Shown here in pieces: positions 1,635 through 30,631 of a stretch of 64,000 nt of DNA. Each line of letters opens with the position of its first letter. Position 1 is the first letter of the stretch. The stretch is taken from the NCBI GenBank assembly GCA_016719515.1, contig JADJYZ010000037.1:34630-98629 (forward strand). The letters are read 5' to 3'. A program made the position numbers and the translations under genes. The DNA comes from Deltaproteobacteria bacterium (GTDB taxonomy: Bacteria > Myxococcota_A > UBA796 > CAJQPC01). The notes beneath the pieces were generated by a model. The model saw only the letters and a list, made by a program, of their open reading frames with translations, was not told the DNA's origin and did no database searches.

Positions 1635-1646
1635 GGGTGACCCCGA

Positions 1647-5274: not shown

Positions 5275-5280
5275 GCAGGC

Positions 5281-7133: not shown

Positions 7134-7295
7134 GTTGAGGAGGACCGGCGGGATGAGGTTCAGGAGGTGATGGCCACGCCGAGGCCAAAAAAAAGGAGCC
7201 GCCCGGGGGGGCGCCTCCTCGATGAAGGAAGCAGGGACGATTCTTCTATGTCCGCGCGCACCCGCTGTCAAGCGCGGTCAAGCGCAGCCACAGCA

Positions 7296-8899: not shown

Positions 8900-9068
8900 G
8901 ACGACTCCGAATGCAGCGTCATCGCTGCGAGGCACACACACACTTTTAACCCGATAATGGGTACGCGGTCTCTCTTGTCATGTCAAGTCATCACCGAGGC
9001 TTCACCTGAACCCCAACAACGCCCCCAGCGCCCCTCCCTTCGCCGTTGTCTGCGGCCTGCTCTGCGTC

Positions 9069-12769: not shown

Positions 12770-13128
12770 GACCCCGTCACCACGACCGTCTCGGCGGCTC
12801 CTCCCGACCTCAAGCGCCAGGGTGAGCCGCGAGACGTTTTAGCCCCGCAGACGACCTCCGCGCAAGCCGCGCCCCGCTCGGGTATAGTGAGCTTGGCCTC
12901 TGCCCGGTTCGAGTACAGAGCGATCGTGGTTCCTCCACAAGTATGTCCCGGGACCCGCCCCTCTCCGTGGTGTGCACGCCTCCTCGTGAGGAAGCCTGAA
13001 GCGGGAATGCGGCTCCCCCCTCCTGAGTGGAGGAGGACCCCAACGCTCACACGGCCAGGGTGGAGGCCACTTTTTTGCGCGGACGCCGACACGGGAACCT
13101 CCCCGCCGCCGCCAGGGTCTCCTGCACC

Positions 13129-14124
13129 ATGACCATCGTAAGCCTGCTCGTGCTCTTCGCCTGCGCCGCCCGCGCGCCCGTCGTGCTCTACCCCTTGGAC
13201 CAGCACCAGCCCCCGGCGGCGCTGGTTGGGGTCTTCGCCAGCCAGAGCCCCGACGCGCTGTTTGAGGACGCCTACTCCCGGCTCCTCAACGACGACCTGG
13301 AGGGCGCTGAACAACGGCTGGTGTACCTCGCGGGCCTGCCGGACGGCCCACCCGAGGCGCTCTACCACCTGGGCGTCGTCTACGAGCTGCGCGGAGCGCT
13401 GGAGACGGCGATCTCGGCCTACGATCTGCTCCTCACCCAAGATCCCCCTGAGGAGCTCGCGCCGAGCGTACACTTTCGCCGCGGCCTGTGTCTTGAGGAG
13501 CTCGGCCGCTTTGACGAGGCGCTCAAGGCCTTCTCTAAGGTGCCTACCACCGGCGGCCTGAGCCTCAACGACCGCGTCACCTACGACGTGGCGCGTGGCG
13601 TGGCGATGTTGGGCTCGGGCAAAGAGGCCAAAGGGCTTGAGCTGCTCCAGGCCGCGCTCTCCACCACCCGCCGCGACCCAGAGCTGGCCTGGATCCTCGG
13701 CAAAGGCTGGTACACCCTCGCCCGGCACGACCTCGACCAAGCGGCGGCGCTCTCGCTGAACGAGTCTGAGCGGAAGGTCAAGAAGAACCTAGAGGCCCGG
13801 GCCGGGCTCATCATGGACGCCGAGGCCGACCTCGTGCACGTCGTCGAGCAGCACGAGCCGGAGTGGATCCTCCGGGGCCTGCTCGACCTCGGCGACGCCT
13901 ACATCACGCTCCGCGAAGACATGATGCGCTCGCCCACCCCCGCCGGGCTCAGCGCCGAGCAGGCCGCGCTCTACGTCGCCCAGGTCGACAAGAGCACCCG
14001 CGTGCTCATCGCCAAGGCGTTCAACGCCTACGACCAGGGCCTCATCGTCGCGGGCACCCTCGGGTTTGAGGGGGAGCTGACCGAGACCCTACGCGCCCGG
14101 CGCGACGCCTTGCCCACGGACTGA
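13129..14124 (+). CDS. TPR-repeat lipoprotein
   Basis: Signal peptide with lipobox LFAC; multiple TPR-like helical repeats (ALYHLGVVYELRGALETAISAYD...). Confidence 0.6.
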   Translation: MTIVSLLVLFACAARAPVVLYPLDQHQPPAALVGVFASQSPDALFEDAYSRLLNDDLEGAEQRLVYLAGLPDGPPEALYHLGVVYELRGALETAISAYDLLLTQDPPEELAPSVHFRRGLCLEELGRFDEALKAFSKVPTTGGLSLNDRVTYDVARGVAMLGSGKEAKGLELLQAALSTTRRDPELAWILGKGWYTLARHDLDQAAALSLNESERKVKKNLEARAGLIMDAEADLVHVVEQHEPEWILRGLLDLGDAYITLREDMMRSPTPAGLSAEQAALYVAQVDKSTRVLIAKAFNAYDQGLIVAGTLGFEGELTETLRARRDALPTD

Positions 14125-14210: not shown

Positions 14211-15326
14211 TCAGTCGGCGTTCTTGTAGAACGTCGGGATGTCGTAGTCGTCGTGCGCGATGTCGAAGCCGCTGGCCATCTCGCGGCCATGACCGCCGTG
14301 CATCCCGCGGCGACCGGCCACCTGAACGGCGACGCGGCGCTCGGCGGAGGGCACCACCTGCTGACGGGCCTCCTCGAAGCCCGTGGCGATGACGGTGACG
14401 CGGGCCTCGTCGCCCATGGTGTCGTCGATGACCCAACCCCAGATGAGGTTGACGTCCTCGTGGGCCTCTTCCTGAATCAGCGAGGAGGCCTCGTTGATCT
14501 CGTACATCGTGAGGTTCGAGTTGCCGGTGATGTTCATCAGGACGCTGGTGGCGCCGGAGATGGAGACATCGTCGAGCAGCGGCGAGGAGATCGCGCGCTG
14601 GGCGGCGTCCACCGTCTTGTGGTCACCCGTGGCCGTGCCGACGCCCATGAGCGCCACGCCCTTGTTGGCCATCGTCGTGCGCACGTCGGCGAAGTCGACG
14701 TTGACGATGCCCTCAAAGTTGATGAGGTCGGACACGCCCTTGATCGCCTGGAGCAGCACCTGGTCGGCGAGGTTGAACGCCTCCTTCATGGTGGTGCGGT
14801 CGCTGGCCATGGCGATGAGGCGCTGGTTGGGGATGGTGATGAGGGTGTCCACGACGCCCTTCAGCGCCTCGATGCCCTCTTCAGCCTGACGGCGGCGCTT
14901 CTTGCCCTCGAACCAGAACGGGCGGGTGACCACACCGACGGTGAGCGCGCCGTGCTCGCGGGCGAGCTGGGCCAGAACCGGCGCCGCGCCCGTGCCCGTG
15001 CCGCCGCCCATGCCGGCGGTCACGAAGACCATGTCCGCGCCGACGACGAGCTCCGCGAGGCGCTCCTTGTCCTCAAGGGCCGCCTCACGGCCGACCTCGG
15101 GGTTGGCGCCAGCGCCAAGGCCCTTGGTGAGCTGACCGCCGAGCTGAAACCGGCGGGGGGCCAGCGAGCGACGAAGATCCTGGGCGTCGGTGTTCACGGC
15201 GATGAACTCGACCCCGGTGAGACCACCCGCGATCATGGTGTTGACGGCGTTGTTGCCGCCGCCGCCAACGCCGATCACCTTGATCTTGGCGCCGACCAGT
15301 TCGTTCTCAATGATTTCGATGGGCAT
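14211..15326 (-). CDS. ftsZ: cell division GTPase FtsZ
   Basis: MPIEIIENE...[19 protein letters not shown], tubulin signature GGGTGTG; start reset to MPIEII, since upstream ORF-track residues are wrong-frame-like. Confidence 0.95.
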
Positions 15327-15489
15327 GGAGTTCTCCCGAGGTGCCCCTGCGCGTTGACGCGACAGGAGGACAGGCGAGGCTTGGAGGGATTGTCGTTCGC
15401 GGGGGACGAAGGAGACGAGGAGGAGTGCAGGAGGGGAGCAGCGAGGTGCTTGCAGAGGTCGTCGCGTCCGAGGATGAGCCGGGGATGGC

Positions 15490-16275
15490 TCAGGACGAGA
15501 GCGGGGTCGCCACAGCGAGGCCGTCGAGGTCGAGGTCGATGTGGTGAGGGACGGAGAGGTCAAGCCCGTTGCGAGCCATGACCCCGAGCCGCAGAAGCTG
15601 CTGCGCCGGGTCTCGGAAACCGAACCGGAGCAAGCCGCCGTTGCGGAGGAGGAGGGTGAAGCCTAAGGCCTCGTCAAAATGAAGCTCGGAGAGGTCGTCG
15701 GGCTGAATCACGCCGCTCTCCCCGACGAGGTCGAGGATGTGCAGCGCGTCGAGCACGATGCGCCGAGCCACCGGCCCATATTGTTCTACGAGGCGATCGT
15801 CCAGGCCCGTGAGCACCGGCCGATCGAGGCCGTCGCCGCGGGCCCGCAAGAACACCTCACCCGAGGGGTTCACGCGGTAAAGATGCCCGGCGTGGGAGAG
15901 CAGCAGCACGTCCTCGTGCTCCTGCACATGCACCCGAAGGCCGCCGGGGTACACCCGCTCGACCTCCACCTCGGCCACCCAGGGGTGACGCATCACCTGG
16001 CGGATGACGGTGTTGAGGTCGATGAGCAGGAGCGCGTCGCCCTCGTGAACATCGGCGAGGTGGCGCACGGCCACGACGCTGGCGTGGTGGTTGCCGACGA
16101 CCTCCACCGTCGCCACGCGGGCGAAGCGGTGGTAGTTGCAGACCCCATAAACGCCGAGGCCGCTCACCCCCGCCGTCACCACCGCCACGCCAAGGAGCCG
16201 CAGGACGCGGCCCACGATGGGGCGCTCCAGCAGGTCGGCGAGGCGGTCACGGAGGCGGGTCAGCATGGCTCTCAA
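15490..16275 (-). CDS. ftsQ: cell division protein FtsQ/DivIB (POTRA)
   Basis: Single TM helix followed by a POTRA domain and a beta-rich domain; position between ddl and ftsZ. Confidence 0.8.
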
Positions 16276-16435
16276 CAGGCAGGGGCAGCGGGGAGGGAAT
16301 CAGCGTTCGCGGTGCGGCGGCGGCTTCTGCGGGGACTGAGCTTCTTTTACCAGAGGCCGAGAAGTCTTGACAAGTAAATAGTTTGATTTTCCCTGCTCGG
16401 GGTCGTTTTTACCCCCAAACAAGGATCCTTGAGGC

Positions 16436-17389
16436 TCAAGCGCGCTCGTCTCGGCGCTCTAGGTGCAGGCGCGCGCCGAGGAGGATCGTCTCGACGAGCT
16501 CCTCAAAGGACATCCCCAGGGCCCCGGCCGCCATTGGGCTCAGGCTGGTCGCGGTCATGCCGGGGATGGTGTTGATCTCCAAGAAGTAGGGCTGGCCTGA
16601 GGCGTCGACGATGAAGTCGGCGCGGGCGACGCCGCCCAAGCCCAGGCGGGCGTAGGCCTCCTCCGCGGCGCGCTGGGCGCGCTCGGCCACGGCGGGGTCG
16701 ATGGGCGCGGGCACGATGTACTTCGTGAGGCCCTTGGTGTACTTCGCGGCGAAGTCGAAGAAGCCGGACTCGGGCACGATGGCGACCACAGGCAAGGCCC
16801 GGCCGTTGAGCACGGCCACGGTGATCTCCGCGCCGGAGACGAACTGCTCTAGGAGCACCTCCTCGCCGAGCTGGCCCAGGTCCAAGAGCGCCTTCTCAAG
16901 CTCGTGCTCCTCATGCACCATGACGATGCCCAAGGTAGAGCCGCCCTCGGGGAACTTGGCCACGACGGGCAAGGTGAGGTCCTCAGGGATGGCCTCACCC
17001 CGGCGCCAGACCGTGTCCGCGGGCATCACCACGCCCGAGCCCACCAGGGCACGTTTGGTGGCGATCTTGTCCATCGCCATCGCCGAGCCCCGCACGCCGG
17101 AGCCGGTGTAGGGGATACGCATAATCTCCAGGAGGCCCTGCACGCAGCCGTCCTCGCCGAACTGGCCATGCAGCGCGATCCAGGCCACCTGGGCGCCGAG
17201 CTCTCTGAGGCGCTCGGGCAGATCCGGGCCCACATCGACGGCGTGGGCGTCCCAGCCGCGGCTCTGCAGCGCGCCGAGCACGGCTTTGCCCGACTTTAAG
17301 GAGATCTCCCGCTCGCTGGACATGCCGCCCAGAAGCACCGCCACCCGCGCGTCGCGGGGAATCACCGTCTTTGTCGTGTCAGCCATCAC
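16436..17389 (-). CDS. ddl: D-alanine--D-alanine ligase
   Basis: VAVLLGGMSSEREISLKSG...; ATP-grasp motifs. Confidence 0.95.
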   Translation of the reverse strand: MMADTTKTVIPRDARVAVLLGGMSSEREISLKSGKAVLGALQSRGWDAHAVDVGPDLPERLRELGAQVAWIALHGQFGEDGCVQGLLEIMRIPYTGSGVRGSAMAMDKIATKRALVGSGVVMPADTVWRRGEAIPEDLTLPVVAKFPEGGSTLGIVMVHEEHELEKALLDLGQLGEEVLLEQFVSGAEITVAVLNGRALPVVAIVPESGFFDFAAKYTKGLTKYIVPAPIDPAVAERAQRAAEEAYARLGLGGVARADFIVDASGQPYFLEINTIPGMTATSLSPMAAGALGMSFEELVETILLGARLHLERRDERA

Positions 17390-18248
17390 TCCTCCGGCTA
17401 CGCCCTAAGGGCTTGAGCTCAGGGTTCAGGTCTACGCCGAGGTGGCTCTTGGCGCGGTCTTTGACCATTCCGATGAGCACCTTGAGGTCGTTCTCTTTGG
17501 CGCCGCCGAGGTTGATGAGGGTGTTTGGCTCATAGCCGCCGAGCCGCGCGCTGCGTAAGCGCACGCCGCGTAGGCCAAGCTCACTCATCATCTCCGCCGC
17601 GTTGTGGTTCTTTTTGGGGTCCAAAAACAGGCGCCCCGGCAGGCCCGGCCCACGTTTGGGGGCGCGACCGCCCTTGAGCGCCTGAGCGGGGTCAAGCTCA
17701 AGGCGGGCCCGCACGATGACGTGGTCGTCCTTGAGCTTGCCGGGCACCACCTCGGTGAGCCGACCGCCGCGCAGCACCCGCACACCCACCAAGGTCGGCG
17801 GCGGCTCGTCGCGGCGGAGCAGCTCGGCGATGGTGCCTGAGACGTGGTTGTAGAGCTCTAAGCCGATGAGGCCCTCACGCTTGGCGTAGCTGGCCAAGGC
17901 CGCCACGGGCGTCTGGGCGCCCACATCGAGGCGCAGGCCCTCGCGGGAGATGCCCTCTGCGCAGGCGCCGAGTCGCAGCCAGACGCCGTCCGCGCCGCCG
18001 TCGCCAACCCAGAGGTGCTGGCCGTCTACGGGCACCACACGCTCATTCGCCTCGCGGATGAGGCCCACCGCCTCCAGGAGCGCCTCCTCGGTCTCGACCA
18101 CCACCCACAACGCCGCCGGGCCGCCCACACGCCAGGTGCAGTGGCGGCTCATCGGCTCGTCCTCACGCACCATCAGCCCCGGCACGCTGCGCAGGCGCTC
18201 GGCGAGGGCGGCCGTGGGCAGGGCCGATGGAGGCGCGGACTCGCTCAA
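17379..18248 (-). CDS. murB: UDP-N-acetylenolpyruvoylglucosamine reductase MurB (short type)
   Basis: CTWRVGGPA N-terminal motif; C-terminal LFLDPKKNHNAAEMMSELGLRG...TLINLGGAKENDLKVLIGMV matches the MurB C-domain. Confidence 0.75.
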   Translation of the reverse strand: MSESAPPSALPTAALAERLRSVPGLMVREDEPMSRHCTWRVGGPAALWVVVETEEALLEAVGLIREANERVVPVDGQHLWVGDGGADGVWLRLGACAEGISREGLRLDVGAQTPVAALASYAKREGLIGLELYNHVSGTIAELLRRDEPPPTLVGVRVLRGGRLTEVVPGKLKDDHVIVRARLELDPAQALKGGRAPKRGPGLPGRLFLDPKKNHNAAEMMSELGLRGVRLRSARLGGYEPNTLINLGGAKENDLKVLIGMVKDRAKSHLGVDLNPELKPLGRSRRSDG

Positions 18249-19633
18249 CGAGGCTCCCCGCCGAGGCGCTGCACCAAGGGCGCGCAGATCGAGTTCACGT
18301 TGCCCGCGCCCAAGGTGATCACCAGGTCGTTGGGCTGGGCCATGTCTGCGAGCCGGGTGAGGGCCTCGTCCAGATCGTCCACCCGATCGACGCCGCGGTG
18401 GCCGTAGCGGCGTAGGCCTTCAGCGAGGCTCTGGTGGTCGATCCCGTCGATGGGCGCCTCGCCCGCCGCGGCGATGGGGCAGACGAGCACCCGATCGGCG
18501 CGGTTAAAGGCCCGGCAGAAGTCGGCGTGAAGGTCGCGAACCCGGGTGTAGCGGTGCGGCTGAAAGACCGCGATGATCCGACGCTTCTCGAAGCCCGCGC
18601 GGGCGGCGGCGAGGGTGGCGCGGATCTCCTCGGGGTGATGGCCATAGTCATCCACGACCATGACGCCGCCGGCCTCCCCCACGACAGTGAACCGGCGCTG
18701 CACCCCGGTGAAGCCGTCTAAGCCCGCGGCGACCTGCTCAAAGGGGATGTCGAGGCCCAAGGCCGTGGCCGCCGCCGCCAAGGCGTTCTGCACGTTGTGC
18801 TGGCCGGGCATCATCAGGCGCAGGCGACCCAGGCTCTCGGGGCCCCGATGTACGGCGAAGCTCGTCTCTAAGCCATTGCAGCGGATGTCGTCCCCGCGCA
18901 GGTCGGCCTGCCGGGTGAGGCCGTAGGTGACCACGCGGCGGCGCAGCTCGGGCAGGCTCTCTTGCACGATGGGGTGGTCCAGGCAGGCCACGGTGAAGCC
19001 GAAGAAGGGCACCTTGTTGGCGAAGTCTACAAACGCCCGGCGTAAGGTGGCGAAGTCGCCGTAGTGGTCGAGGTGCTCGGGGTCGATGTTGGTGATGACG
19101 GCCACGGTGGGCGCCAACAACAAGAAGCTGCCGTCGGACTCATCGGCTTCAGCGACGAGCAGCTCCCCCTGGCCGAGCTTGGCGTTTGAGCCCAAGGCGT
19201 CGAGCTTTCCGCCGATCACCACCGTGGGGTCGAGGCCCGCGGCGCCGAGGATCTGGGCGATCATCGAGGTCGTCGTCGTCTTGCCGTGGGTGCCGGCGAC
19301 GGCGACGCCGTACTTCATGCGCATCAGCTCGGCGAGGAGCTCGGCCCGGGGGATGACGGGGATGGCCTGGGCGCGCCCGGCGGAGAGCTCCGGGTTGTGG
19401 TCGGGCACCGCCGTAGAGCGCACGATGACGTCGGCGCCGACGATGTTCTCCGCGCGATGGCCGATGAACACCTGGGCGCCCAAGCTCCGCAGCCGGGCCA
19501 CGGTGCCGCTCTCTTTCATGTCCGAGCCGGACACCACAAAGCCCAAGGTGAGCAGCACTTCAGCGAGCCCGTTCATGCCGGATCCGCCGATGCCCACAAA
19601 ATGAACCTGACGCACCTTTCCGCGGAACATCAT
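18245..19633 (-). CDS. murC: UDP-N-acetylmuramate--L-alanine ligase
   Basis: VHFVGIGGSGMNGLAEVLLTLGF, GTHGKTTTTSM. Confidence 0.95.
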   Translation of the reverse strand: MMFRGKVRQVHFVGIGGSGMNGLAEVLLTLGFVVSGSDMKESGTVARLRSLGAQVFIGHRAENIVGADVIVRSTAVPDHNPELSAGRAQAIPVIPRAELLAELMRMKYGVAVAGTHGKTTTTSMIAQILGAAGLDPTVVIGGKLDALGSNAKLGQGELLVAEADESDGSFLLLAPTVAVITNIDPEHLDHYGDFATLRRAFVDFANKVPFFGFTVACLDHPIVQESLPELRRRVVTYGLTRQADLRGDDIRCNGLETSFAVHRGPESLGRLRLMMPGQHNVQNALAAAATALGLDIPFEQVAAGLDGFTGVQRRFTVVGEAGGVMVVDDYGHHPEEIRATLAAARAGFEKRRIIAVFQPHRYTRVRDLHADFCRAFNRADRVLVCPIAAAGEAPIDGIDHQSLAEGLRRYGHRGVDRVDDLDEALTRLADMAQPNDLVITLGAGNVNSICAPLVQRLGGEPR

Positions 19634-20784
19634 CGGGCCAGAACCCCCTCCGCCGTGGCGCTCGGGCGGTAGATGGTGGGCGCCCGGGCTCCGGCGGCGC
19701 TGTTCGCCGAGACGTTGAGCAAGAGCCCCACGGCGAAGAGCTGGGCGACGATGGCGGAGGCGCCATAGGACATAAACGGCAGCACGAGGCCCTTGGGCGG
19801 CACGATGCCCATGACGACGCCGAGGTTGAAGAAGGCCTGCAGGCCGATGGCCGCGGTCAATGACGTCGCGAGCAGGGCCCCGAAGAGGTCTTCAGCCTGC
19901 CGGGCGACGTGCATGCCGCGCCAGATGAGCAGGCCGTAGAGCGTCAACAGCGCGAGCACGCCGATGAGGCCCAGCTCTTCACCCAACACCGAGCCGATGA
20001 AGTCGGTCCAGGGCTCGGGCAAGAACAGGTGTTTGGCTTGGCTCTCGCCGAGGCCACGCCCGGTGAGCCCGCCGGAGTGAAACGCGATCATCGACTGGAT
20101 GACCTGGTAGCCCGAGCCCGCCGCGTCCGCCCAAGGGTCCATGAACGAGCGCAGGCGCTTGAGCCGATAGGGCTCGGCCACGGCCACCAAGGCGCCGACG
20201 GTGACCCCGAGGCCAAAGAGCGCGTAGATAAACCGTGTGCGCAGCCCAGCGACGACCAGGGTGAGGAAGGCCATGCCGCCGATGATCACCGTGGTGCCGA
20301 AGTCGGGCTCCATGACGATGAGCAGCATCAAGGGCACGGGGATGGCCAAGGCCGGCAAGAGCACGTTCTTCACGTCGTCCAGGCGGCCGCCCTTCTCGTC
20401 GATGAAGTGCGCCATACACAAGACGCAGACCAGCTTCGCCAGCTCTGACGGCTGCAGGTTCACGCTGCCCATGCCGATCCAGCGCGACGCGCCGTTGACC
20501 CGGTGGCTGAGCCCCGGCACAAACACCAAGATGAGCCCGATGATGACCGCCGCGTAGGCCGCCCAGGCGTAGCGCCGCAGCCACTCATACGGCGTGAACG
20601 CGATGCCGACGCCGCCGATGATGCCGACGATGATCGCCGCGAGCTGGCGTTTGACGTAGTACCAGGGGTCGTCCAGGCGGTCGGCGGCCACGGGCCCCGA
20701 GGCCGACTGCACCATCACCAGCCCCAGAATGAGCAGCACGACGACGAGGCCCATGAGGGGCAGATCAAAACGGCGGGCCTTCAT
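19630..20784 (-). CDS. ftsW: lipid II flippase/peptidoglycan polymerase FtsW (SEDS family)
   Basis: 10-TM SEDS protein; in the canonical dcw position, overlapping the murC start. Confidence 0.9.
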   Translation of the reverse strand: MKARRFDLPLMGLVVVLLILGLVMVQSASGPVAADRLDDPWYYVKRQLAAIIVGIIGGVGIAFTPYEWLRRYAWAAYAAVIIGLILVFVPGLSHRVNGASRWIGMGSVNLQPSELAKLVCVLCMAHFIDEKGGRLDDVKNVLLPALAIPVPLMLLIVMEPDFGTTVIIGGMAFLTLVVAGLRTRFIYALFGLGVTVGALVAVAEPYRLKRLRSFMDPWADAAGSGYQVIQSMIAFHSGGLTGRGLGESQAKHLFLPEPWTDFIGSVLGEELGLIGVLALLTLYGLLIWRGMHVARQAEDLFGALLATSLTAAIGLQAFFNLGVVMGIVPPKGLVLPFMSYGASAIVAQLFAVGLLLNVSANSAAGARAPTIYRPSATAEGVLAR

Positions 20785-22104
20785 GTCGTGGCCTCCTGGG
20801 CGAGCCGCGCGAAGACGGCCCCACGGTGCTCGAAGTTGTTGAACTCATCAAACGAGGCGCAGGCCGGGGTGAGCAGCACCGCCTGGCCGGGCCGCGCGAG
20901 GCGACGGGCCAAGGCCACGGCGTCGGCGAGGCCAGAGACGACGTGGTGGGGATGCGCCCCCAACCCTTGGGAGATCTCCTGGGCGCTGCCGCCGCAGACG
21001 ATGACCTCCACCGCCGCGCGTGAGAGCGCCGGGCGGAGCAGGCCGTAGTCGGCGCCCTCTTTGCCTTGGCCGCCGAGGATCACCACCGCCGGGCGATCGA
21101 CGCTCTCTAAGCCCACCAAGGCGGCGTCGACGTTCGTGGCTTTGGAGTCGTTGATCCACAACACCCCGGCCTGCTCGGCCACGGGCTGCATGCGGTGGGG
21201 CAAGGCCGTGAGCGCCGAGAGGTCCAGCGCCGCCAAGGATGCGCCCAAGGCCCGGGCCAAAGCGGCGGCCACGGCGGCGTTCCAGCGGTTGATCCGGCCC
21301 ATGACCTTGAGGCCCGAGAGGTCTAGGCGCTCCCCTTCGATGAGGGCGTAGGAGCCATCGTCGCCGAGCAGCACGCCGGGCTCAGCATCCAGCCAGCGCC
21401 GCTGCCCCGGTTTGCCCTCACAGGCGGCCTTCAGGAGAATGTCTCCATTGGGGACATAGGCCAGAGCCGCTGGGCGTCATGTGGTCAAAGAGCTTGGCTT
21501 TGGCCGCGGCGTAGCCCTCCATCGTGCCGTGCCGGGCGAGGTGGTCGGGGGTGAGGTTGAGGATCACCCCGGCGTCGGGCGCGAAGTCTCCGGCGAGCTC
21601 AAGCTGGTACGAGGAGACCTCGACGACGAGGCTGTCAAAGTCCCCGCCCACGGCCTCACACAAGGGCGTGCCCAGGTTTCCGCCGACGAAGGGCCGCCGC
21701 CCGACCCCACGCAGGAGCTGCCCGGTGAAGTGGGTGACCGTGGATTTGCCGTTGGTGCCGGTGATCGCCGCCGTGGGCAGGCGCGGCAGGTGGCGCCAGG
21801 CGAAGCCCAGCTCACCGAGCACCTCCACCCCAGCGGCCAACGCCCGGCGCACCGGCGGCGCCGCGGCGGGCACCCCCGGGGAGACGACGACGAGGTCCAC
21901 GTCGGTGAGATCGGCGTCCTCATGGCGGCCAAAGACGTTGTGCGCGCCCTCGACGCCCTCGGAGTCCGCCTTGAGATCCGTGAGCGTCACCCGCTCTGCG
22001 CCCAAGCGCAACGCCAGACGCGCGGCGGCCCGGCCCGAGAGCCCAGCCCCGAGCACGGTGACCCGACGTGGCATGACGTGGGTTGTGGCGCCGCCCATGC
22101 TCAC
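20781..22104 (-). CDS. murD: UDP-N-acetylmuramoylalanine--D-glutamate ligase MurD, split by a +1 frame disruption near 21474-21483
   Basis: N-terminal half (ORF 21418..22104: VTVLGAGLSGRAAA...ITGTNGKST...AAKAKLFDHM) and C-terminal half (upstream extension of ORF 20781..21374: AYVPNGDILL...WINDSKATNV...) align contiguously to MurD. Confidence 0.85.
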
Positions 22105-23210
22105 CTCAGCTTCAAGGTGGTGAGGGCCACCAGCGCGAGCAGGATCGAGATGATCCAGAACCGCACGATGATCTTCGGCTCCGACCAGCCACGCTTCTCG
22201 TAGTGGTGGTGAATCGGCGCCATGGCGAACACGCGCTTGCCCGTGGTCTTGAAGCTCACGACCTGCACGATCACCGAGACCGTCTCCAAGACGAAGATCC
22301 CGCCGACCAGGGCCAGGAGCACCTCATGTTTGGTGACCACGGCCAAGGCCGCGAGCAGCCCGCCCAAGGCCAAGGAGCCCACGTCGCCCATAAAGATCTG
22401 CGCGGGGTAGGCGTTGTACCAGAGGAAGCCCAGGCCCGCGCCGACCACGGCCATACACAGCACCGTGAGCTCTGAGGCCCCGGCGACGTACTCCACGGCG
22501 AGGTAGGTCGAGAAGTTCGTGTTCCCGGCGACATACGCCAAGATGCCGTAGGTGCCCGCCGAGGTCATCACCGGGCCGATGGCCAGGCCGTCGAGGCCAT
22601 CGGTGAGGTTCACGGCGTTGGACGCGCCGACGAGGATGAACAGCACCAAGGCGAGGTAGAGCCAGCCCAGGCTGGGCGGGGCGCCCTCCCAGAGGTTCCC
22701 GAAGTCCACGCCCGCCTTAAAGAACGGGAGCTGAAACACGGCGTTCATGCGCCCGGTCTGGTAGGCCCAGGCGAAGGGCAGCACGCCGAAGACGAGCTGC
22801 CCGACGATCTTCCAGCGCCCGGCGAGGCCATCGGCGGACTTCTCCATCACCTTCTTCCAGTCGTCTACGAAGCCGATGAGCCCATAGCCGAGGAGCACGA
22901 TGAGGCAGACCCAGACCGACCACTGATCGAGGCGACACCACAGAAGCGCCGAGAGCGTGATGCCCGCGAGCATCGGCACCCCGCCCATGGTCGGCGTGCC
23001 CAGCTTGTTCTCGATGTGCTCCTGCGGCCCGTCGGTGCGGATGATCTGCTCCATCTTCCGGGTGTTCATCCAGTTGATGAAGCTCGGGAAGACCAAGTAG
23101 CAGAACCCGAGCGCGGTCATGAGCGCCCAGGCCGTCCGGAACGTGGTGTACCGGAAGACGTTGAAGAAGATGTGGTCGTCCGCCAAGGGGACGAAGAGGT
23201 GGTAGAACAT
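22101..23210 (-). CDS. mraY: phospho-N-acetylmuramoyl-pentapeptide transferase
   Basis: MFYHLFVPLADDHIFFNVFRYTTFR..., polytopic; start reset to MFYHLF. Confidence 0.95.
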   Translation of the reverse strand: MFYHLFVPLADDHIFFNVFRYTTFRTAWALMTALGFCYLVFPSFINWMNTRKMEQIIRTDGPQEHIENKLGTPTMGGVPMLAGITLSALLWCRLDQWSVWVCLIVLLGYGLIGFVDDWKKVMEKSADGLAGRWKIVGQLVFGVLPFAWAYQTGRMNAVFQLPFFKAGVDFGNLWEGAPPSLGWLYLALVLFILVGASNAVNLTDGLDGLAIGPVMTSAGTYGILAYVAGNTNFSTYLAVEYVAGASELTVLCMAVVGAGLGFLWYNAYPAQIFMGDVGSLALGGLLAALAVVTKHEVLLALVGGIFVLETVSVIVQVVSFKTTGKRVFAMAPIHHHYEKRGWSEPKIIVRFWIISILLALVALTTLKLR

Positions 23211-24586
23211 CAGCCCTCCGGCTCCGGCGGAGCCTCCAGGGGGAGCCAAACGAGAGAACGCTCCATCTTGGAGCCGCGTGAGCCCTTGATGAGCACCACG
23301 TCATCGGGGCGCAGCACCCCTTGGACACGCTCGGCGAGGGCGTCGGCGTCGGGGGCGACGAGCAGGGACTTGGCCCCTTTGGCAGTTTCTGCCACCGCCG
23401 AGAAGCGGGCTCCGGCGAGGCCGAGCACCTCGATCCCCAGCGACGCCGCGTAGGCCGCCAGCTCGCGGTGAGCGCCGTCCTCGACCTCACCCAGCTCCAG
23501 CATGTCGCCCAACAAGGCCACCCGGCGGCGCCCCCGCACGGCGGCGAGGCTGTCCAGCGAGGCCCGCATCGAGAGCGGGTTCGCGTTGTAAGCGTCGTTG
23601 AGCACGGTGATCCCACCTTGGCGGCGCTCCACGCGCATCCGCATGCCCACGGGGGCGTAGCGGGCGATGCTCTCGGCGTATGACCGGCTGGGCACACCCA
23701 AAGCCCAGGCCACGGCGACGGCCCCGGCGGCGTTCCGCGCGAGGTGAACGCCCGGCGCGGGCAGAGTCGCCGTGAGCAGCTCACCGTCGGGCAGGCGCAA
23801 GACCAGCTCCGTCGTGAGGTGCTCCGGGTCGAGCTCAGCGCGCAGAAGCCGCACGTCCGCCCGCTCCCCCATGCCAAACCGCAGGATCCCGGCGCCTTTT
23901 GGCAGAGGCATCTGGCGAATGTGCTCGTCGTCTACGTTGACGATCACCCAGTCCCCTGCCCTCGCGCCGTCAAAGATCTCTTGTTTGCAGCGGGCGACGC
24001 CCTGAACGGAGCCGATGGTCTCGGTGTGCGCCGCGCCGACGCTGGTGATGAGCCGAACGTTGGGCTGGCCGATGTCGCGCAAGAGGCGAATCTCGCCGTA
24101 GTCGCTCATGCCCATCTCTAAGACGACGGCGTCGGGCTCATCGGGGCAAGCGAGCAGCGTGAGCGGCACGCCGATGTGGTTGTTGAGGTTGCCCTCGTTC
24201 TGGTGAACCCGGCCCAGGGGCGCGAGCAGCTCCGCGATGAGCGCCCGGGTCGTCGTCTTGCCCGCGCTGCCGGTGACGCCGACCACCGGGCAGTCGAGCT
24301 TCCACCGGGCCCAGCGCGCGCAGTTCTGCAGGGCCTCTAAGGTGCGTGGCGTCTTCACGAAGCCCCGATCCCAGCCCTCAGGCACCTGCTCGGCGATCAC
24401 CCCAGCGCAGCCAAGCTCCCGGGCCTTGGGCAAAAACTCGTGGCCGTCGAAGCGGTCGCCGCGCAGGGCCAGAAACCAGTCGCCCGGCGTGAGCGCGCGG
24501 CTGTCGGTGCGGATCGGCCCGGCGGGGCCGTCGTGAATCAAGAGCCCACCCGTGGCCCGGGCGATCTCGGCTGGCGTGAGGATCAT
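23210..24586 (-). CDS. murF: UDP-N-acetylmuramoyl-tripeptide--D-alanyl-D-alanine ligase
   Basis: Mur-ligase domains, VVGVTGSAGKTTT. Confidence 0.9.
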   Translation of the reverse strand: MILTPAEIARATGGLLIHDGPAGPIRTDSRALTPGDWFLALRGDRFDGHEFLPKARELGCAGVIAEQVPEGWDRGFVKTPRTLEALQNCARWARWKLDCPVVGVTGSAGKTTTRALIAELLAPLGRVHQNEGNLNNHIGVPLTLLACPDEPDAVVLEMGMSDYGEIRLLRDIGQPNVRLITSVGAAHTETIGSVQGVARCKQEIFDGARAGDWVIVNVDDEHIRQMPLPKGAGILRFGMGERADVRLLRAELDPEHLTTELVLRLPDGELLTATLPAPGVHLARNAAGAVAVAWALGVPSRSYAESIARYAPVGMRMRVERRQGGITVLNDAYNANPLSMRASLDSLAAVRGRRRVALLGDMLELGEVEDGAHRELAAYAASLGIEVLGLAGARFSAVAETAKGAKSLLVAPDADALAERVQGVLRPDDVVLIKGSRGSKMERSLVWLPLEAPPEPEG

Positions 24587-26031
24587 GCGCCCTCCTCTAA
24601 AAACGCCGCGCGCAGGGCACGGCGATCGTCAAAGGGGTGCTTGACCCCGGCGATCTCTTGGGTGGTCTCGTGGCCTTTGCCCGCGATCAGCACCACGTCC
24701 CCAGGCCTTGAGAGCGCGACGGCGCGGCGGATGGCCTCAGCGCGGTCGGGCACGATCAGGGCGTCGGGGCCGAGCCCGGGGGCCATGTCGTTCAGGATGG
24801 CCAGCGGATCTTCACCGCGGGGGTTGTCGCTCGTGGCGATGACCACGTCGGCGCCTTCGCTCGCCGCCCGGGCCATGAGCGGCCGCTTCTGGGGGTCGCG
24901 GTCGCCGCCGCAGCCGAAGACGAGCACGATGCGCTGGGCGCCGAGCTCTCGGAGCGCGCTGAGCACCGTGCGTAGGCCATCTTCAGTGTGGGCGTAGTCC
25001 ACGAGCGCCGTGACGCCGCGGTTGTTGGCCACAGGCTCCAGCCGACCGGGCACCGGCGGCGCCTTCGAGAGCCCTTCGGCGACCTGCTCCGGGCTCAAGC
25101 CCAAGCTCAAGGCCGCGCCCGCCGCGCCCAAGGCGTTGGCGACGTTGTGCCGACCGAGCAGGGGCAGCCGCAGCGCAAAGTCGCCCCAAGGCGTCACCAC
25201 CGTCGCCTCGCTCCCAGAGACGGTGAGGCGTAGGCCCTCGGCGTGAACGTCGCCGTGATCTACGCCGAAGGTCACCCGGCGCACGCCCTCAGGCAGCGTC
25301 GGCAAGGCCATCACCGCCGGGTCTTCAGCGTTGAGCAGGGCCGTGGCCCCGCTGGGCAAAAGCTCCAAGAACAGCCGCGCCTTGGCCTGGGCATACGCCG
25401 CCATGTCGCCGTGGTAGTCGAGGTGGTCTTGGGTGAGGTTCGTGTAGACCCCCACCGCAAAGCGCGTGGAGTCCACCCGGCGGGCGTCTAGGCCGATGGA
25501 GCTGACCTCGGCGGCCGCCCACTCACAGCGAGCGTCCACGGCCCGGCGCAGGAGGCCCTGCCACTCCGTGGGCTCGGGCGTGGTGTGGGTCGCGGGCAGG
25601 TTCTCCCCGGCCACACGGTTGCCCACGGTGCCGATGACCGCGGCGCGCACGCCGTTCGCCGCGGCGATGGCCTCGATGAGCTGCGTCGTCGTCGTCTTGC
25701 CGTTGGTGCCGGTCACCCCGACGACCTTCAGATCATTGGACGGATGACCAAAAAACGCCGCGGCCAGCTCGGCCAAGGCCTTGCGGCTGTCGTTGACCCG
25801 CACGACGGTGACCCCGGCGGGGGCCTCTACGTCCCGCTCAACGACGACCGCCGCGGCTTGGCTGAGCCCAGCGACGTGATCGTGGCCATCCCCACGCCGC
25901 CCGACCAGGGCGACAAACACCGCCCCGGGGCCCGCGCGGCGCGAGTCCTGGGTGATGGCGACGATGGGAAGATCAACGCGGCCATGAACATGAGCCACGT
26001 CGACCCCGCGCAGCAGCTCGGAGAGCATCAT
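24583..26031 (-). CDS. murE: UDP-N-acetylmuramoyl-L-alanyl-D-glutamate--2,6-diaminopimelate ligase
   Basis: VVGVTGTNGKTTTTQLIEAI, DNPR motif. Confidence 0.9.
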   Translation of the reverse strand: MMLSELLRGVDVAHVHGRVDLPIVAITQDSRRAGPGAVFVALVGRRGDGHDHVAGLSQAAAVVVERDVEAPAGVTVVRVNDSRKALAELAAAFFGHPSNDLKVVGVTGTNGKTTTTQLIEAIAAANGVRAAVIGTVGNRVAGENLPATHTTPEPTEWQGLLRRAVDARCEWAAAEVSSIGLDARRVDSTRFAVGVYTNLTQDHLDYHGDMAAYAQAKARLFLELLPSGATALLNAEDPAVMALPTLPEGVRRVTFGVDHGDVHAEGLRLTVSGSEATVVTPWGDFALRLPLLGRHNVANALGAAGAALSLGLSPEQVAEGLSKAPPVPGRLEPVANNRGVTALVDYAHTEDGLRTVLSALRELGAQRIVLVFGCGGDRDPQKRPLMARAASEGADVVIATSDNPRGEDPLAILNDMAPGLGPDALIVPDRAEAIRRAVALSRPGDVVLIAGKGHETTQEIAGVKHPFDDRRALRAAFLEEGA

Positions 26032-26766
26032 CAGCGTTCAGCGGGGAGGAGGGGGGTCGCGACGGGGAGGGGAGAATCAGGAGAAGTTCAGGATGAAGCG
26101 GCGGAGATGTCGGGCGGCGGTGAGTGGCGCCCCTCTGCGTACTGCCAGGGAGTCACGCGGATTGGAGATACGGCTCAGCGTGCAGAGAGGCGCCACCAAC
26201 ACCTGCCCAATGGAGGTCCGATCGTGTCTTGCCTCCTTCAGACGCTCCCACCCCGCGAGGCCCCAGCGCGAAGAGGCCGGGGTTCCAAACCAGCAGCAGC
26301 AGTTGTCTCAGCGAGGAGCGACAGGGCGGGGCGACGGACCAGCACAACTCACGGCGGAAGGAGGCGCGCCAGAACAGCGCGCTTGACCTCCGAGGCGAGC
26401 GCCAGCGATGACTGGCGAGCCGGACCCGCACCCCCGGCCTGCGACGCGCGGAGCCTGTCTGCGGGGCGGGAGCGTGAAGGATGGCCGGGCCGACGTGGCC
26501 GCGCGCACGAGGACTTCCTCGTACAGCGTCAGCGACAGCATCAGCAGGTTTCAGCAGGGTTTCGGCGGGCAGCGAGAGCATCGACAGCGTCTCTGATGGG
26601 CCAGAAGCGGGGCTGGCGTCACCAGGGCACACCCTTCGCGCGGGGATTGCGCTCGGGGCTCTGTCAAGCATACGCGGCAGCGCAGACCCGACCATCGGCA
26701 GATCATCCGCAAAGCGCAAGAGCACGCCTTCGGACCTCTGAGAGCTTGTTTGGCGGAGGTTGGCCG

Positions 26767-28860
26767 TCATTGCAGCACGACCTCCAGCCGGTCCCCCGCC
26801 GCCAAAGCATAGCCCGGCGCGGGGTTTTGAGAGACGACGCGGCCTGAGCCGACGAGGCTGACCTCAACCCCGGCGCCATCGACGGCGACGAGCACGTCAC
26901 GCATCGAGCGGCCGGTGAGGTCGGGGACGGACATGCGCCCATCGGCCAGCCAGGTGAGCTGGGCGGGGCCTGGGGCCACCTTCACCGGGGCGGGCATCGC
27001 CATGGGCGGCGGCACCACGGGCAGGGGCAGGCCATCGGGGCCGAGCGCCGGAGGCGGCGGGGCGAGCTTGGGCTTGGGCTCAATCGGCACATCTTCGGGC
27101 ACGCCCAGGTAACGAAGCGCCCGGGTGGCGATGAGCGAGAAGCCGGGGCCAGCGACGATGCCGCCGTACTTGCTGCCGATGGTGGGCGTGTCGCCGATGA
27201 CCACGATGGCGAGGCGAGGATCGTTCGCCGGGGTGAGCCCGATGAACGACGACACCCGCGCCGTGGCCGAGTAGTGGCCGTCCACGACCTTCTGCGCCGT
27301 GCCGGTCTTGCCCGCGGCGGAGAAGCCCTCGGGCCGGGCCTTGGTGCCCGTGCCGCCGGTCTCCAACACGGTGATCATCATCTTCACGAGGCTGTCCGCG
27401 GCCTCTTCAGAGATGACCCGCTCCACCCGCACCGGGCGGTTGCGCAGCCGGACATAGCCCAGGCGATCCCGCACTTCAGAGACCAGGTACGGCTTCATGC
27501 GCACGCCGTCGTTGCCCACCGCGGCCAAGGCCGCCGCGAGCTGCACCGCGGTGGCGGTCATGCCCTGACCAAAGGCCGTCGTCGCCACCTCAATGGGCCG
27601 AATGCCTTTGGGGTTCCGCAAGAAGCCGTAGACCTCGCTGGGCAGGTTCAGGCCCGAGGGCTGGGTGAACCCAAACCGCTTGAGGCCCGCCATCATCTCT
27701 TCAGCGCCCATGGCGAACGCCAGCTTGGCCGTGCCGATGTTGGAGCTGTACTTCACCACCTCAGAGAGGGTCACGACACCGTGGGGGTGGTCGTCGTTGA
27801 TGATGCTGTTGCCGACGCGCCAGCTCCCGCCCTCGCAGTCGATGAGGTCTTCAGCCTTGTTGATGCCTTTGTCTACGGCGAGGCCGACCACAAAGGGCTT
27901 GAGCACCGAGCCCGGCTCGTGGGCGTCCGCGACGGCGCGGTTACGCATCGCCGAGACGTCGATGGTGGAGACGTCGTTGGGGTTCGCGTTGGGCCGGTTG
28001 GCGATGGCGAGGATCTCGCCGGTCTTCACGTCCATCACCACCGCGATGGCCGCGGCCGGGGCGGAGGTGATCATCATCTGGTCCAGCGCGTCTTCAGCGG
28101 CGCGCTGAATGAAGGGCTCGATGGTGAGGGTGACCGAGTCTCCGGCGTGGGCCCGGGCCCGGGCGTCCCCCGCCGTAGAGATGTTGCGCCCGCGGCGGTC
28201 ACGCTGCTGCACGAAGCGGTAGGTGCTGCCCCGAAGCTGCTTGTCCAGGGAGCGCTCGATGCCCTCAAGGCCCTGGTTGTTCTGCCCGACCATGCCCAAC
28301 AGCGAGGCCGCCAGGGCGCGCCCGGGGTAAAACCGAGTGGACTGGTAGTCTACCCACAAGGCGCCGGGGACGAGCTTCTCGACGGCGTCGACGGCGTCGG
28401 GGGAGATCTGGCTGGCGAGCAGGATGTCGCGGCGCTCGCTCTTGCTCAGCTTCTCGGTGAGGTCCGCGGCGTCGAGGCCGAGCATGCCCGCCAGCTCACG
28501 CGCCAGAGGCCCGACCTGCTCGGCGGTGAGCTTGGACGGATCGGCGCGCAGCGCGGGCATCTCAACAGAGGTGGCCAGCACCGTGCCGTCGCGGCCGAGG
28601 ATGTCGCCGCGCGGGGCCTCCACCTCTACCGCCGTCTGAAACTGCGTCGCGGCCTTGGCTTGAAGGCGATCGTCGGGCATCAACATCAGGGGCACGGCGC
28701 GCAGGGCCAACACGACGTAGCCAAGAATGACGCCGACCATGATCAATGACGCGCGGAAACGGGCCCGGGCCATGAGCGTCGCCCGATCCACGGTGCCAGG
28801 ATCTGGCGCGAGCATCGCGCTGAGCCAGGCGGAGAGATCGTTGGCGACGGGCTTGTTCAC
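26767..28860 (-). CDS. ftsI: penicillin-binding protein 3 (FtsI) transpeptidase with a C-terminal PASTA domain
   Basis: TM anchor, dimerisation and transpeptidase domains (SVLKPF, SSN, KTGTA); C-terminal about 65 aa, VPDLTGRSMRDVLVAVDGAGVEVSLVGSGRVVSQNPAPG, is a PASTA fold. Confidence 0.9.
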   Translation of the reverse strand: MNKPVANDLSAWLSAMLAPDPGTVDRATLMARARFRASLIMVGVILGYVVLALRAVPLMLMPDDRLQAKAATQFQTAVEVEAPRGDILGRDGTVLATSVEMPALRADPSKLTAEQVGPLARELAGMLGLDAADLTEKLSKSERRDILLASQISPDAVDAVEKLVPGALWVDYQSTRFYPGRALAASLLGMVGQNNQGLEGIERSLDKQLRGSTYRFVQQRDRRGRNISTAGDARARAHAGDSVTLTIEPFIQRAAEDALDQMMITSAPAAAIAVVMDVKTGEILAIANRPNANPNDVSTIDVSAMRNRAVADAHEPGSVLKPFVVGLAVDKGINKAEDLIDCEGGSWRVGNSIINDDHPHGVVTLSEVVKYSSNIGTAKLAFAMGAEEMMAGLKRFGFTQPSGLNLPSEVYGFLRNPKGIRPIEVATTAFGQGMTATAVQLAAALAAVGNDGVRMKPYLVSEVRDRLGYVRLRNRPVRVERVISEEAADSLVKMMITVLETGGTGTKARPEGFSAAGKTGTAQKVVDGHYSATARVSSFIGLTPANDPRLAIVVIGDTPTIGSKYGGIVAGPGFSLIATRALRYLGVPEDVPIEPKPKLAPPPPALGPDGLPLPVVPPPMAMPAPVKVAPGPAQLTWLADGRMSVPDLTGRSMRDVLVAVDGAGVEVSLVGSGRVVSQNPAPGYALAAGDRLEVVLQ

Positions 28861-29213
28861 TGGGCCACCCCGATCGTCACGGTGCGGACCTGAACGTCAG
28901 AGACGAGGCCCATGGCCGCGCCGACCTGGCCCAAGCGGGCGAGGTCTTGGCGGGTGGCCAGCTCAAGGCGCAGGCGCTCTTGTTCGGCCTGACGGGTGGC
29001 GAGCTGGGTGTTCACGCGGTCGAGCTCGGCGGCGCTGGCGCGCACGTCCACCCGAGACCAGACGTAAAACATCAACGAGGCGACGAGCAGCATCGCGAAG
29101 GTGAAGTACCGCAGCACCACACCGACCCGCACACCTGCCCGCGACGCGCCCGCGAGGAGCCCCGCCGCAGAGCGACCGACCCAAGCGCCTCCTAGCTCGC
29201 GACCCCATTCCAT
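28857..29213 (-). CDS. ftsL: cell division protein FtsL (FtsB/DivIC-like)
   Basis: 118 aa, single TM helix (YFTFAMLLVASLMFYVW) followed by a coiled coil; between rsmH and ftsI. Confidence 0.7.
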   Translation of the reverse strand: MEWGRELGGAWVGRSAAGLLAGASRAGVRVGVVLRYFTFAMLLVASLMFYVWSRVDVRASAAELDRVNTQLATRQAEQERLRLELATRQDLARLGQVGAAMGLVSDVQVRTVTIGVAQ

Positions 29214-29265
29214 GACCGACCTCCTACGCCACCTCAGCCACCGCCGACGTACTGCACCGCTGCCG

Positions 29266-30171
29266 CTACACCCGCTCGATCACCCGGAGCTTCGCCGAGC
29301 GCGCCCGGGGGTTCCCCGAGCCCGCGTCCTCGACGGCCTTCTTCGTGATGAGCCTCGCCGTCGGAACACCGAGGGACCGCCCGTAGGCGTCCTTCTCGGC
29401 GTCCAGCCCCGCGAGCGCCCGAAAACGCTGCTTGACCCGACGATCTTCTAAAGAATGAAACGAGATCACCGCCGCCCGACCGCCCACGGTGAGGCAGCCA
29501 GGCAAGGCCGCCAAGAGCCGGTCCAGCTCACCCAGCTCGTCATTGACGGCGAGGCGAAGGGCCTGGAAAGAGCGTGTGGCGGGGTGAATGCGATCCCGAG
29601 GGCCGCCCATCGCCCCGGCGATGACCTGGGCGAGCTGCGCTGTGCCGGTGATCGGCCGCGCGGCGACGATGGCCCGGGCCAAACGACGCGACTGGCGCTC
29701 CTCACCGAGGCCATAGAGCAGATCCGCCAGCTCCGCCTCGGGGAGGCCGTTGACCAGCTCCGCCGCCGTGGTGGGGGCGTCTGGGTCCATACGCATGTCC
29801 AGCGGGCCGTCTCGCATAAACGAGAAGCCCCGGGCGGCCTGATCGAGCTGGGGGCTCGACACGCCGAGATCGGCGACGAGGCCGTCTACGGCGCTCACAC
29901 CGGCCTCGGCCAAGGCGGCTTGCAGCGCGCCGAAGGTCGAGCGCACGGCGACGAAGCGCTCACCAAACCCGGCGAGGCGGGCTGAAGCGGCGGCGAGGGC
30001 GTTTGGGTCGCGGTCGAGGCCGATCACCCGGCCCGTGGGCCCCGAGGCCTCCAAGAGCCGCTCGGCGTGGCCGCCGCCGCCCAAGGTGCAGTCGAGGTAC
30101 AGGCCGCCGTCGCGCGGGGCGAGCAGCGCGCAGACCTCGGACCCCATCACCGTCTCGTGCTGGAACACCGT
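29266..30171 (-). CDS. rsmH: 16S rRNA (cytosine1402-N4)-methyltransferase RsmH/MraW
   Basis: HETVMGSEV...YLDCTLGGGGHAE, SAM motifs; start reset to about the GTG at 30171 next to the mraZ stop. Confidence 0.9.
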   Translation of the reverse strand, partial: TVFQHETVMGSEVCALLAPRDGGLYLDCTLGGGGHAERLLEASGPTGRVIGLDRDPNALAAASARLAGFGERFVAVRSTFGALQAALAEAGVSAVDGLVADLGVSSPQLDQAARGFSFMRDGPLDMRMDPDAPTTAAELVNGLPEAELADLLYGLGEERQSRRLARAIVAARPITGTAQLAQVIAGAMGGPRDRIHPATRSFQALRLAVNDELGELDRLLAALPGCLTVGGRAAVISFHSLEDRRVKQRFRALAGLDAEKDAYGRSLGVPTARLITKKAVEDAGSGNPRARSAKLRVIERV

Positions 30172-30178
30172 CACTGGC

Positions 30179-30631
30179 TCACCCCTTCGTGGCGGGGAGC
30201 GCCTGTTGACGAGCCCGGGCGTACTCGTGAATGGCCTGCTGGCGAGTGGCCTCCCAGCGCGCCGGATCCCAGAGCTCAATCCACTGCATGACGGAGATGA
30301 GCACACACTCGCGGTCGAGGCCGGCGTCTTGGCGGAGCCGGTTGGGGATACGCAGGCGGCCTTGAGGATCCACCGCGCAGTCTTCAGCGTCAGCGAGGAC
30401 GGCGTGGAAGTATGCTTGAGCGACGGGATCGAACGGGTCTCGGTCCTGGAACGGACCCTCGACGCGCTGGGCGAAGTAATCCGGGGTGAACGCCCGGATT
30501 CCTCCATCCACACACGTGAGCACCAGTGATTCGATCCCAGCGTCATTGATCTTGTGCCTCAGCCGCGCAGGGAGAGCGATGCGACCCTTGTCGTCCAAAG
30601 ACGTCGAGACCTGGCAGCGTTCTCCGAGCAT
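30179..30631 (-). CDS. mraZ: transcriptional regulator MraZ
   Basis: 150 aa, two MraZ repeats (LDDKGRIALPARLR; VDPQGRLRIPNRLR). Confidence 0.9.
   Translation of the reverse strand: MLGERCQVSTSLDDKGRIALPARLRHKINDAGIESLVLTCVDGGIRAFTPDYFAQRVEGPFQDRDPFDPVAQAYFHAVLADAEDCAVDPQGRLRIPNRLRQDAGLDRECVLISVMQWIELWDPARWEATRQQAIHEYARARQQALPATKG

Follow-up and report, generated by a model that had tools for sequence, protein, structure and literature searches.

The division and cell wall (dcw) gene cluster in a 64-kb stretch of contig JADJYZ010000037.1, referred to here as the window, contains neither murG nor ftsA, a layout that is derived and has become fixed in an uncultured clade affiliated with Myxococcota. 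The cluster differs from the canonical one in two further respects. Its murB position is occupied by a gene for a MurB-fold protein, which we read from its sequence as a pseudoenzyme that has lost cofactor binding and catalysis and is kept by selection, and its ftsI and murE genes are separated by a 735-nt non-coding spacer, within which lies a conserved element, a candidate for a new cis-regulatory signal at the RNA or DNA level.

Genes in the window (~70% G+C) were identified by listing open reading frames (ORFs) and scanning them against NCBIfam and Pfam, and junctions were computed from the coordinates. The cluster lies on the minus strand at positions 14211-30631, in the order mraZ-rsmH-ftsL-ftsI-(735 nt)-murE-murF-mraY-murD-ftsW-murC-murB-like-ddl-ftsQ-(163 nt)-ftsZ. 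At its head, mraZ (30179-30631) scored under the TIGR00242 cut-off, with MraZ still the best family (E=3e-22), and rsmH (29266-30174, probably starting with the GTG at 30174) matched TIGR00006 with 285 bits against a cut-off of 154. The ftsL gene (28857-29213) was assigned by a weak TIGR02209 match, its position, its 4-nt overlap with ftsI and a tblastn match in the related locus L001, and ftsI (26767-28860), encoding a class B penicillin-binding protein, by the Pfam domains PBP_dimer, Transpeptidase and PASTA together with NCBIfam matches of the FtsI/SpoVD type. The PASTA domain at the FtsI C-terminus (window 26767-26960) is also found in the clade relatives, as it is in Gram-positive SpoVD/PBP2x-type enzymes.

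Beyond the spacer, scores above the family cut-off were obtained for murE (24583-26031; NF001126, 499 bits against 373), murF (23210-24586; TIGR01143, 370 against 289), mraY (22101-23210; TIGR00445, 413 against 192), ftsW (19630-20784; TIGR02614, 377 against 337.5), murC (18245-19633; TIGR01082, 529 against 335), ddl (16436-17389; NF002378, 357 against 243) and ftsZ (14211-15326; TIGR00065, 419 against 295). The murD gene (20781-22104) is split by a 1-nt insertion, its two halves both matching TIGR01087, and ftsQ (15490-16275) contains the Pfam domains POTRA_1 and FtsQ_DivIB_C. Overlaps of 4 nt join ftsL/ftsI, murE/murF, mraY/murD, murD/ftsW, ftsW/murC and murC/murB-like, and gaps separate ftsI from murE (735 nt, 26032-26766), ddl from ftsQ (160 nt) and ftsQ from ftsZ (163 nt, 15327-15489, 92.6% identical to the related locus L084). 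Comparison with L084 indicated purifying selection on the lipid II and divisome genes other than the murB-like one, with identities of 0.91-1.00 at codon positions 1 and 2 and of 0.72-0.88 at position 3.

An earlier note on this DNA, made from the sequence alone, had described the gene order, its tight coupling, the overlaps and the gap sizes, all of which were borne out by the profile scans and the computed junctions. It had also reported that no murG separates ftsW from murC and no ftsA separates ftsQ from ftsZ, and both absences hold. The murC ATG and the ftsW stop codon share a 4-nt overlap, so that murG could not fit between them, and the ftsQ-ftsZ gap is 163 nt. MurG and FtsA sequences from L004, L024, L034 and L008, which were checked against TIGR01133 (249-314 bits) and TIGR01174 (445-497 bits), were used as tblastn queries against the whole window, and neither protein gave a match better than E=0.05. 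Likely genes elsewhere in the window were called by third-position G+C and then scanned against Pfam, and no GT28/MurG, FtsA, SepF (DUF552) or ZipA domain was detected in any of the other plausible ORFs.

To place this layout, the genome collection was scanned with MurC, which returned 80 loci. Only in the four closest of them (L001, L002, L003 and L009, with 62-69% MurC identity) does ftsW abut murC, and in the two of these four that reach ftsZ (L001 and L003) ftsQ abuts ftsZ. A protein search with the MurB homologue delineated a sharply bounded family of 14 clusters with 38-99% identity, after which scores fall from 153 to 97 bits at canonical MurB. The contigs of this family include L081 (a 910-kb contig of GCA_020632795.1), L084 (GCA_023150845.1), L087/L088, L089 (GCA_036021505.1), L090 and L091, and all of them show the order ftsI-(gap)-murE-murF-mraY-murD-ftsW-murC-murB-like-ddl-ftsQ-ftsZ with downstream synteny like that of the window. 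In total, L001, L002, L003, L009, L081, L084 and L087-L091, 11 loci whose assemblies come from NCBI, ENA, JGI and Logan and differ from that of the window, show the order without murG and ftsA. Between ftsW and murC, murG is present in none of these 11 loci and in 71 of the 71 other loci; between murC and ftsZ, ftsA is present in 0/8 clade loci and 62/62 others.

Because the same order recurs in these near and more distant relatives, it is the norm of the lineage and not a peculiarity of one genome. The composition that the earlier note had singled out is thus shared by 11 relatives, and what remains unusual is the lineage itself, when set against the 71/71 and 62/62 counts elsewhere. Two proteins of the MurB-like family, from close relatives, carry the NCBI organism name "Myxococcota bacterium", which fits the earlier guess of a Myxococcota host, and one is named "Alphaproteobacteria bacterium". 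In the searchable literature we found no description of a Myxococcota lineage without ftsA or murG in its dcw cluster, many subscription papers being beyond reach. In L090 (JGI 3300056827, 10921-13943), ddl, ftsQ and ftsZ are each called as two genes and murC and the murB-like gene are truncated, which looks like the result of indel errors in a long-read assembly.

The clade cluster retains much of the canonical Gram-negative arrangement, as represented by Geobacter (L034) and Myxococcaceae (L024). Orientation, order and tight translational coupling are the same, and mraZ-rsmH comes first and ftsZ last; mraZ-rsmH-ftsL-ftsI followed by murE-murF-mraY-murD-ftsW is kept at the 5' end, as is the 3'-terminal group of ddl, ftsQ and ftsZ. 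However, the canonical cluster contains murG and ftsA, both of which are missing here, its murB is replaced here by an inactive homologue, and its ftsI-murE junction usually measures 30-130 nt instead of 735 nt. Polyangiaceae-type loci (L004, L007, L008, L012 and L014), which belong to the same broad group, likewise depart from the canonical cluster in a lineage-specific manner, but in the opposite direction. In these loci murG and ftsA are retained, whereas murB and ddl appear to be absent at this place: murC and ftsZ are ~2.4-2.8 kb apart, with no murB or ddl match to the window queries between murC and ftsQ.

The earlier note had listed murB among the genes of the cluster, and as regards an enzyme this does not hold. 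The protein encoded at 17379-18248 (minus strand), tested against TIGR00179 and NF010480, scored far under the curated cut-offs (97.5 against 259 bits for NF010480, and 62.9 against 144.5), with matches in two separate stretches. We aligned it to MurB proteins of the PDB and to canonical MurBs of seven other loci, comparing 15 clade members with 14 canonical proteins. In 15 of the 15 clade members the FAD-binding motif GGAxxMNAGAYG is gone, with (S/A)GTVAEAx-R and a 6-residue deletion in its place. Throughout the clade, the segment containing the catalytic Arg (xGYR) is deleted, the catalytic Ser of GSxFxNP is replaced (GLPGR(L/M)) and the EKH(A/C)(G/N) motif is lost, and most members have also lost the Glu of LEPEV. 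The lost Arg, Ser and Glu residues are those that we take to be R159, S229 and E325 of Escherichia coli MurB.

The protein has acquired conserved motifs specific to the clade (GP-GLPGRLMxDP and LCGVRLRGARLGxxEPN), and its gene is 0.916, 0.941 and 0.738 identical to that of L084 at codon positions 1, 2 and 3, a pattern of coding sequence under purifying selection that argues against a pseudogene in decay. The clade alignment was used to build an AlphaFold2 model, which is of moderate quality (pLDDT 71, pTM 0.66), with a poorly predicted C-terminal domain, and its best Foldseek matches are the MurB structures 3tx1, 4pyt and 1hsk (TM 0.68-0.71), so that the modelled protein keeps the three-domain MurB fold. 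It shares fold, length class and operon position with these type II, short-form MurBs, but differs from them by a central segment ~30 residues shorter, by its new motifs and by the missing FAD motif and catalytic Arg and Ser.

The spacer between ftsI and murE (26032-26766, minus strand) is non-coding and exactly 735 nt long, as the earlier note had stated. It is without the strong G+C codon periodicity of the flanking genes, its 205-aa ORF (26153-26770) has no Pfam or NCBIfam match, and tblastx detected no conserved peptide between the spacers of relatives. The 50 substitutions that separate it from the L084 spacer are spread 15/21/14 over the three phases. At 92.6% identity to L084, it is more conserved than the four-fold sites of ftsI, murE, murF, ftsW and ftsZ (68-82%) and about as conserved as other intergenic regions, and it therefore behaves as functional intergenic DNA rather than as neutral sequence. 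Spacers in the clade measure 704, 663, 733, 735, 453, 426 and 235 nt, those of L002 and L003 ~650-770 nt (including a scaffold gap) and 140-260 nt, respectively, and those in other lineages mostly 30-130 nt. In L002, a run of N at ~1800-1830, either a scaffold gap or a masked stretch, falls in the 3' end of ftsI, and because of it the ftsI ORF appears to run into the spacer. No copies of the spacer were found elsewhere in the window or in related loci, and Rfam 15 gave no match to it, either at the gathering threshold or with the limit relaxed to E<=1.

The last ~230 nt of the spacer contain an element that is conserved in eight clade members, as determined by alignment and consensus folding (26100-26234, minus strand). 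A TGnAACCCCGG box is followed by an inverted repeat that forms a stem of 13-16 bp, with arms at ~26182-26208 and 26112-26138 and GGTGGCGCC pairing with GGCGCCACT, and a UA-to-CG double change occurs in L087/L091. The stem encloses in its loop an invariant box, TCCAATCCGCGTGACTCCCTG (26146-26166), of the general form TCCAAT(N)CCGCGTGACTC, and this box is common to L001, L081, L084, L087, L090 and L091. Double changes affect 5 of the 16 pairs of the stem, mostly in one sublineage. A covariance model of the element (R1) found it only upstream of murE in those eight clade loci; it detected no additional copy, and L002, L003 and the outgroups gave no match. When a metagenome collection was scanned with CAATN{0,1}CCGCGTGACTC, a box pattern too short for this use, the matches listed were only chance ones in unrelated contexts. 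Between the element and the murE ATG lies a C/U-rich leader, read from the sequence (26032-26110, minus strand): a tract of ~75 nt with CCUCC-like repeats and no obvious purine-rich Shine-Dalgarno sequence, whereas the coupled genes downstream have GGAGG-like sites. Similar pyrimidine tracts precede murE in L001, L081, L087, L089 and L091. A reading of the conserved boxes as a sigma-54 or ECF-type promoter was rejected, the spacing judged by eye not fitting.

We interpret the locus as a genuine, expressed dcw operon of this clade that the conserved spacer would split into an mraZ-ftsI half and a murE-ftsZ half. Most likely, the spacer would combine an internal promoter region with a structured 5' leader, made up of the hairpin with its box and then the C/U-rich tract, and the murE-ftsZ half may thereby come under separate transcriptional or translational control. 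MurC to MurF, Ddl, MraY, FtsW and FtsI, which apart from MurG cover all that is required after UDP-MurNAc, are intact and conserved, and the C-terminal tether-binding peptide of FtsZ is invariant in the clade. This makes sense only in cells that produce lipid II and anchor their Z-ring. We therefore assume that murG, ftsA (or the gene for another FtsZ tether) and an active murB are probably encoded elsewhere in the clade genomes. Since the Polyangiaceae-type loci are also without some cluster genes at this position, relocation of dcw genes would seem to be common around this clade, and it is the most probable reading. The polyketide synthase (PKS) modules, the Ser/Thr kinase and other genes in the window are typical of large, non-reduced genomes.

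Several observations weigh against this interpretation. No MurG or FtsA match was obtained anywhere in the clade loci, up to ~21 kb of each being covered, and the loss of MurB catalysis, as judged from the missing motifs, shows that the classical pathway has changed at the locus in one step or more. As to the spacer, the other short intergenic stretches around it, among them that of the 6S RNA described below, are 89-93% identical to L084, about the same as the spacer itself, and a scan of 25900-26900 for sigma-70 promoters and intrinsic terminators gave no match. Comparison of the whole spacer with L084 yielded 3 compensatory pairs, a number equalled by 18 of 500 shuffles. Together with a folding z-score of -5.0, which was calculated against only 20 shuffles, this makes the structural support for a whole-spacer RNA modest and suggestive only.

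The alternative that survives best, which we consider possible though rather unlikely, is that FtsA is truly absent from the clade genomes and that another protein (SepF-, ZipA- or FzlC-like, or a new one) tethers the FtsZ C-terminal peptide. It draws on the contrast between 62 of 62 other loci with adjacent ftsA and ftsZ and 0 of 8 in the clade, on the lack of any FtsA-like sequence in 64 kb, and on the C-terminus of FtsZ itself. The usual DDYDIPTFY peptide is present there, in a C-terminal stretch ending in (K/R)NAD that is conserved across the clade, and just upstream of it, with a short linker, the clade proteins have a conserved (E/S)M(A/N)SGFD motif (window 14211-14290). An SGFD-type motif is absent from FtsZ of the ftsA-bearing outgroup loci L034, L024 and L008, and the invariant peptide with this clade-specific motif could mark a changed partner. 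In actinobacterial and cyanobacterial dcw clusters without ftsA, SepF tethers FtsZ. In those clusters ftsQ is likewise followed directly by ftsZ and the FtsZ C-terminal peptide is kept, but murG is retained and sepF usually lies just downstream of ftsZ, whereas the window has neither gene. The window thus offers no candidate tether of the SepF/DUF552 or ZipA type, and absence from the cluster does not equal absence from the genome.

A second alternative concerns the precursor pathway. It could have been remodelled so that the cells have no active MurB and obtain UDP-MurNAc from salvaged MurNAc, with the dead MurB acting as a scaffold or regulator and MurG perhaps missing or replaced. All MurB cofactor and catalytic motifs are lost in 15 of 15 members of a family under purifying selection, and genes for GT2 and GT87-like glycosyltransferases are syntenic beside the cluster in the clade. 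There is also a precedent in Tannerella forsythia, a walled MurNAc auxotroph without MurA and MurB (PMC7670621, PMC5790795). Both systems would be without MurB activity (as deduced here from sequence), but Tannerella forsythia lacks the murB gene entirely, whereas the clade retains a MurB-fold protein under selection. This remodelling is nevertheless very unlikely in our view. MurC, MurD, MurE, MurF, MraY, Ddl, FtsW and FtsI are all intact, lipid II requires a MurG-type step for which no bypass is known, and in a genome that looks large and non-reduced a second, active murB paralogue elsewhere would be simpler.

A comparably small chance attaches to the spacer being the remnant of a decayed gene, or a hidden gene for a small protein, instead of a regulatory region or structured RNA. 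In its favour, the ATG of the 205-aa ORF overlaps the ftsI stop codon, and the length of the spacer varies from 235 to 735 nt in the clade. However, the missing codon periodicity, the even spread of substitutions over the phases and the lack of family matches and of tblastx conservation all speak against coding sequence. A remnant in decay would not be expected to show such high nucleotide conservation, and tblastn matches of MurG and FtsA queries in the spacer were at chance level only (FtsA of L008, E=6.6).

In its most far-reaching form, which we regard as unlikely, a whole clade of free-living, large-genome Myxococcota-like bacteria would divide without FtsA and build its wall without a MurB of its own and possibly with a non-GT28 replacement of MurG. 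Within the Mur and divisome machinery, the dead MurB would have taken on a new role as scaffold or regulator, and a structured RNA of ~700 nt would control the murE-ftsZ half.

The murD frameshift in the window might suggest that the compact order arose in assembly or belongs to a second, non-functional copy of the cluster in decay. This is extremely improbable, since eleven related loci of other assemblies have the same order, L084, L090 and others have an intact murD, all genes show strongly coding-type substitution, and the junctions are 4-nt overlaps and not breakpoints.

The murD frameshift, which the earlier note does not mention, divides the gene into ORFs at 21418-22104 and 20781-21374 that match the N- and C-terminal halves of TIGR01087, respectively. 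Relative to the intact murD of L084 and L090, there is one extra base near 21471, outside any homopolymer run. In all clade relatives murD is intact and encodes 427-438 aa, and the frameshift occurs only in the window sequence. The simplest explanation is that the insertion is probably a sequence or assembly error of this record; it could also be a very recent mutation.

Downstream of ftsZ, the window encodes a tetratricopeptide repeat (TPR) lipoprotein, a 6S RNA, a GT2 glycosyltransferase, a LarA-N protein, Pal, CpoB, RimP, NusA, YlxR, IF-2, a DUF503 protein and a SPOR protein. This block (window 534-12838) is syntenic in L081, L084, L087, L089 and L091, where it comprises the TPR lipoprotein, GT2 (GT21-like), the LarA-N-domain protein, a GT87-like or unknown membrane protein, Pal (OmpA and TIG domains), CpoB and RimP-NusA-YlxR-IF2. 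Since it holds pal and cpoB, genes for outer-membrane constriction adjoin the dcw cluster. The 6S RNA (RF00013, 64.6 bits) lies at 12894-13070 on the plus strand, flanked by the genes for GT2 and for the TPR lipoprotein, the latter convergent with ftsZ, and its intergenic region is also present in L084 with 90% identity.

Upstream of mraZ are genes for an alpha/beta hydrolase, SmpB, a VKOR-DsbA protein, PrmA, RsmE, RibA, HU, RecA, a Mg-chelatase-like ATPase, a homologue of the major vault protein, a Ser/Thr kinase and PKS modules. The vault homologue, an 870-aa protein (45505-48114, plus strand) with MVP_shoulder, Vault_3 and Vault repeat domains, is a bacterial homologue of the protein that forms the vault shell in eukaryotes. 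Positions 35536-38118 (minus strand) and 58161-63036 (plus strand) encode a large secreted protein, which combines Ig-like domains of the HYDIN/DUF1573 type with metal-binding repeats of the MopE type, and PKS modules (KS-AT, DH-ER). The HYDIN/MopE-type secreted protein and the PKS modules are typical of large Myxococcota-like genomes.

In the other loci examined, the ftsA-ftsZ pair (62/62) and the ftsW-murG-murC block (71/71) are invariant, and the clade breaks both. If murG, ftsA and murB lie elsewhere in its genomes, the finding would amount to a lineage-specific rearrangement together with a pseudoenzyme, mainly of interest to those who study dcw evolution. Its most original parts are the pseudo-MurB and the conserved element of the spacer, the latter placing a candidate cis-regulatory signal in a cluster that is usually translationally coupled throughout. 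The clade thus represents a natural experiment on which dcw linkages are dispensable, on the tethering of FtsZ without a co-encoded ftsA and on the role of a MurB pseudoenzyme.

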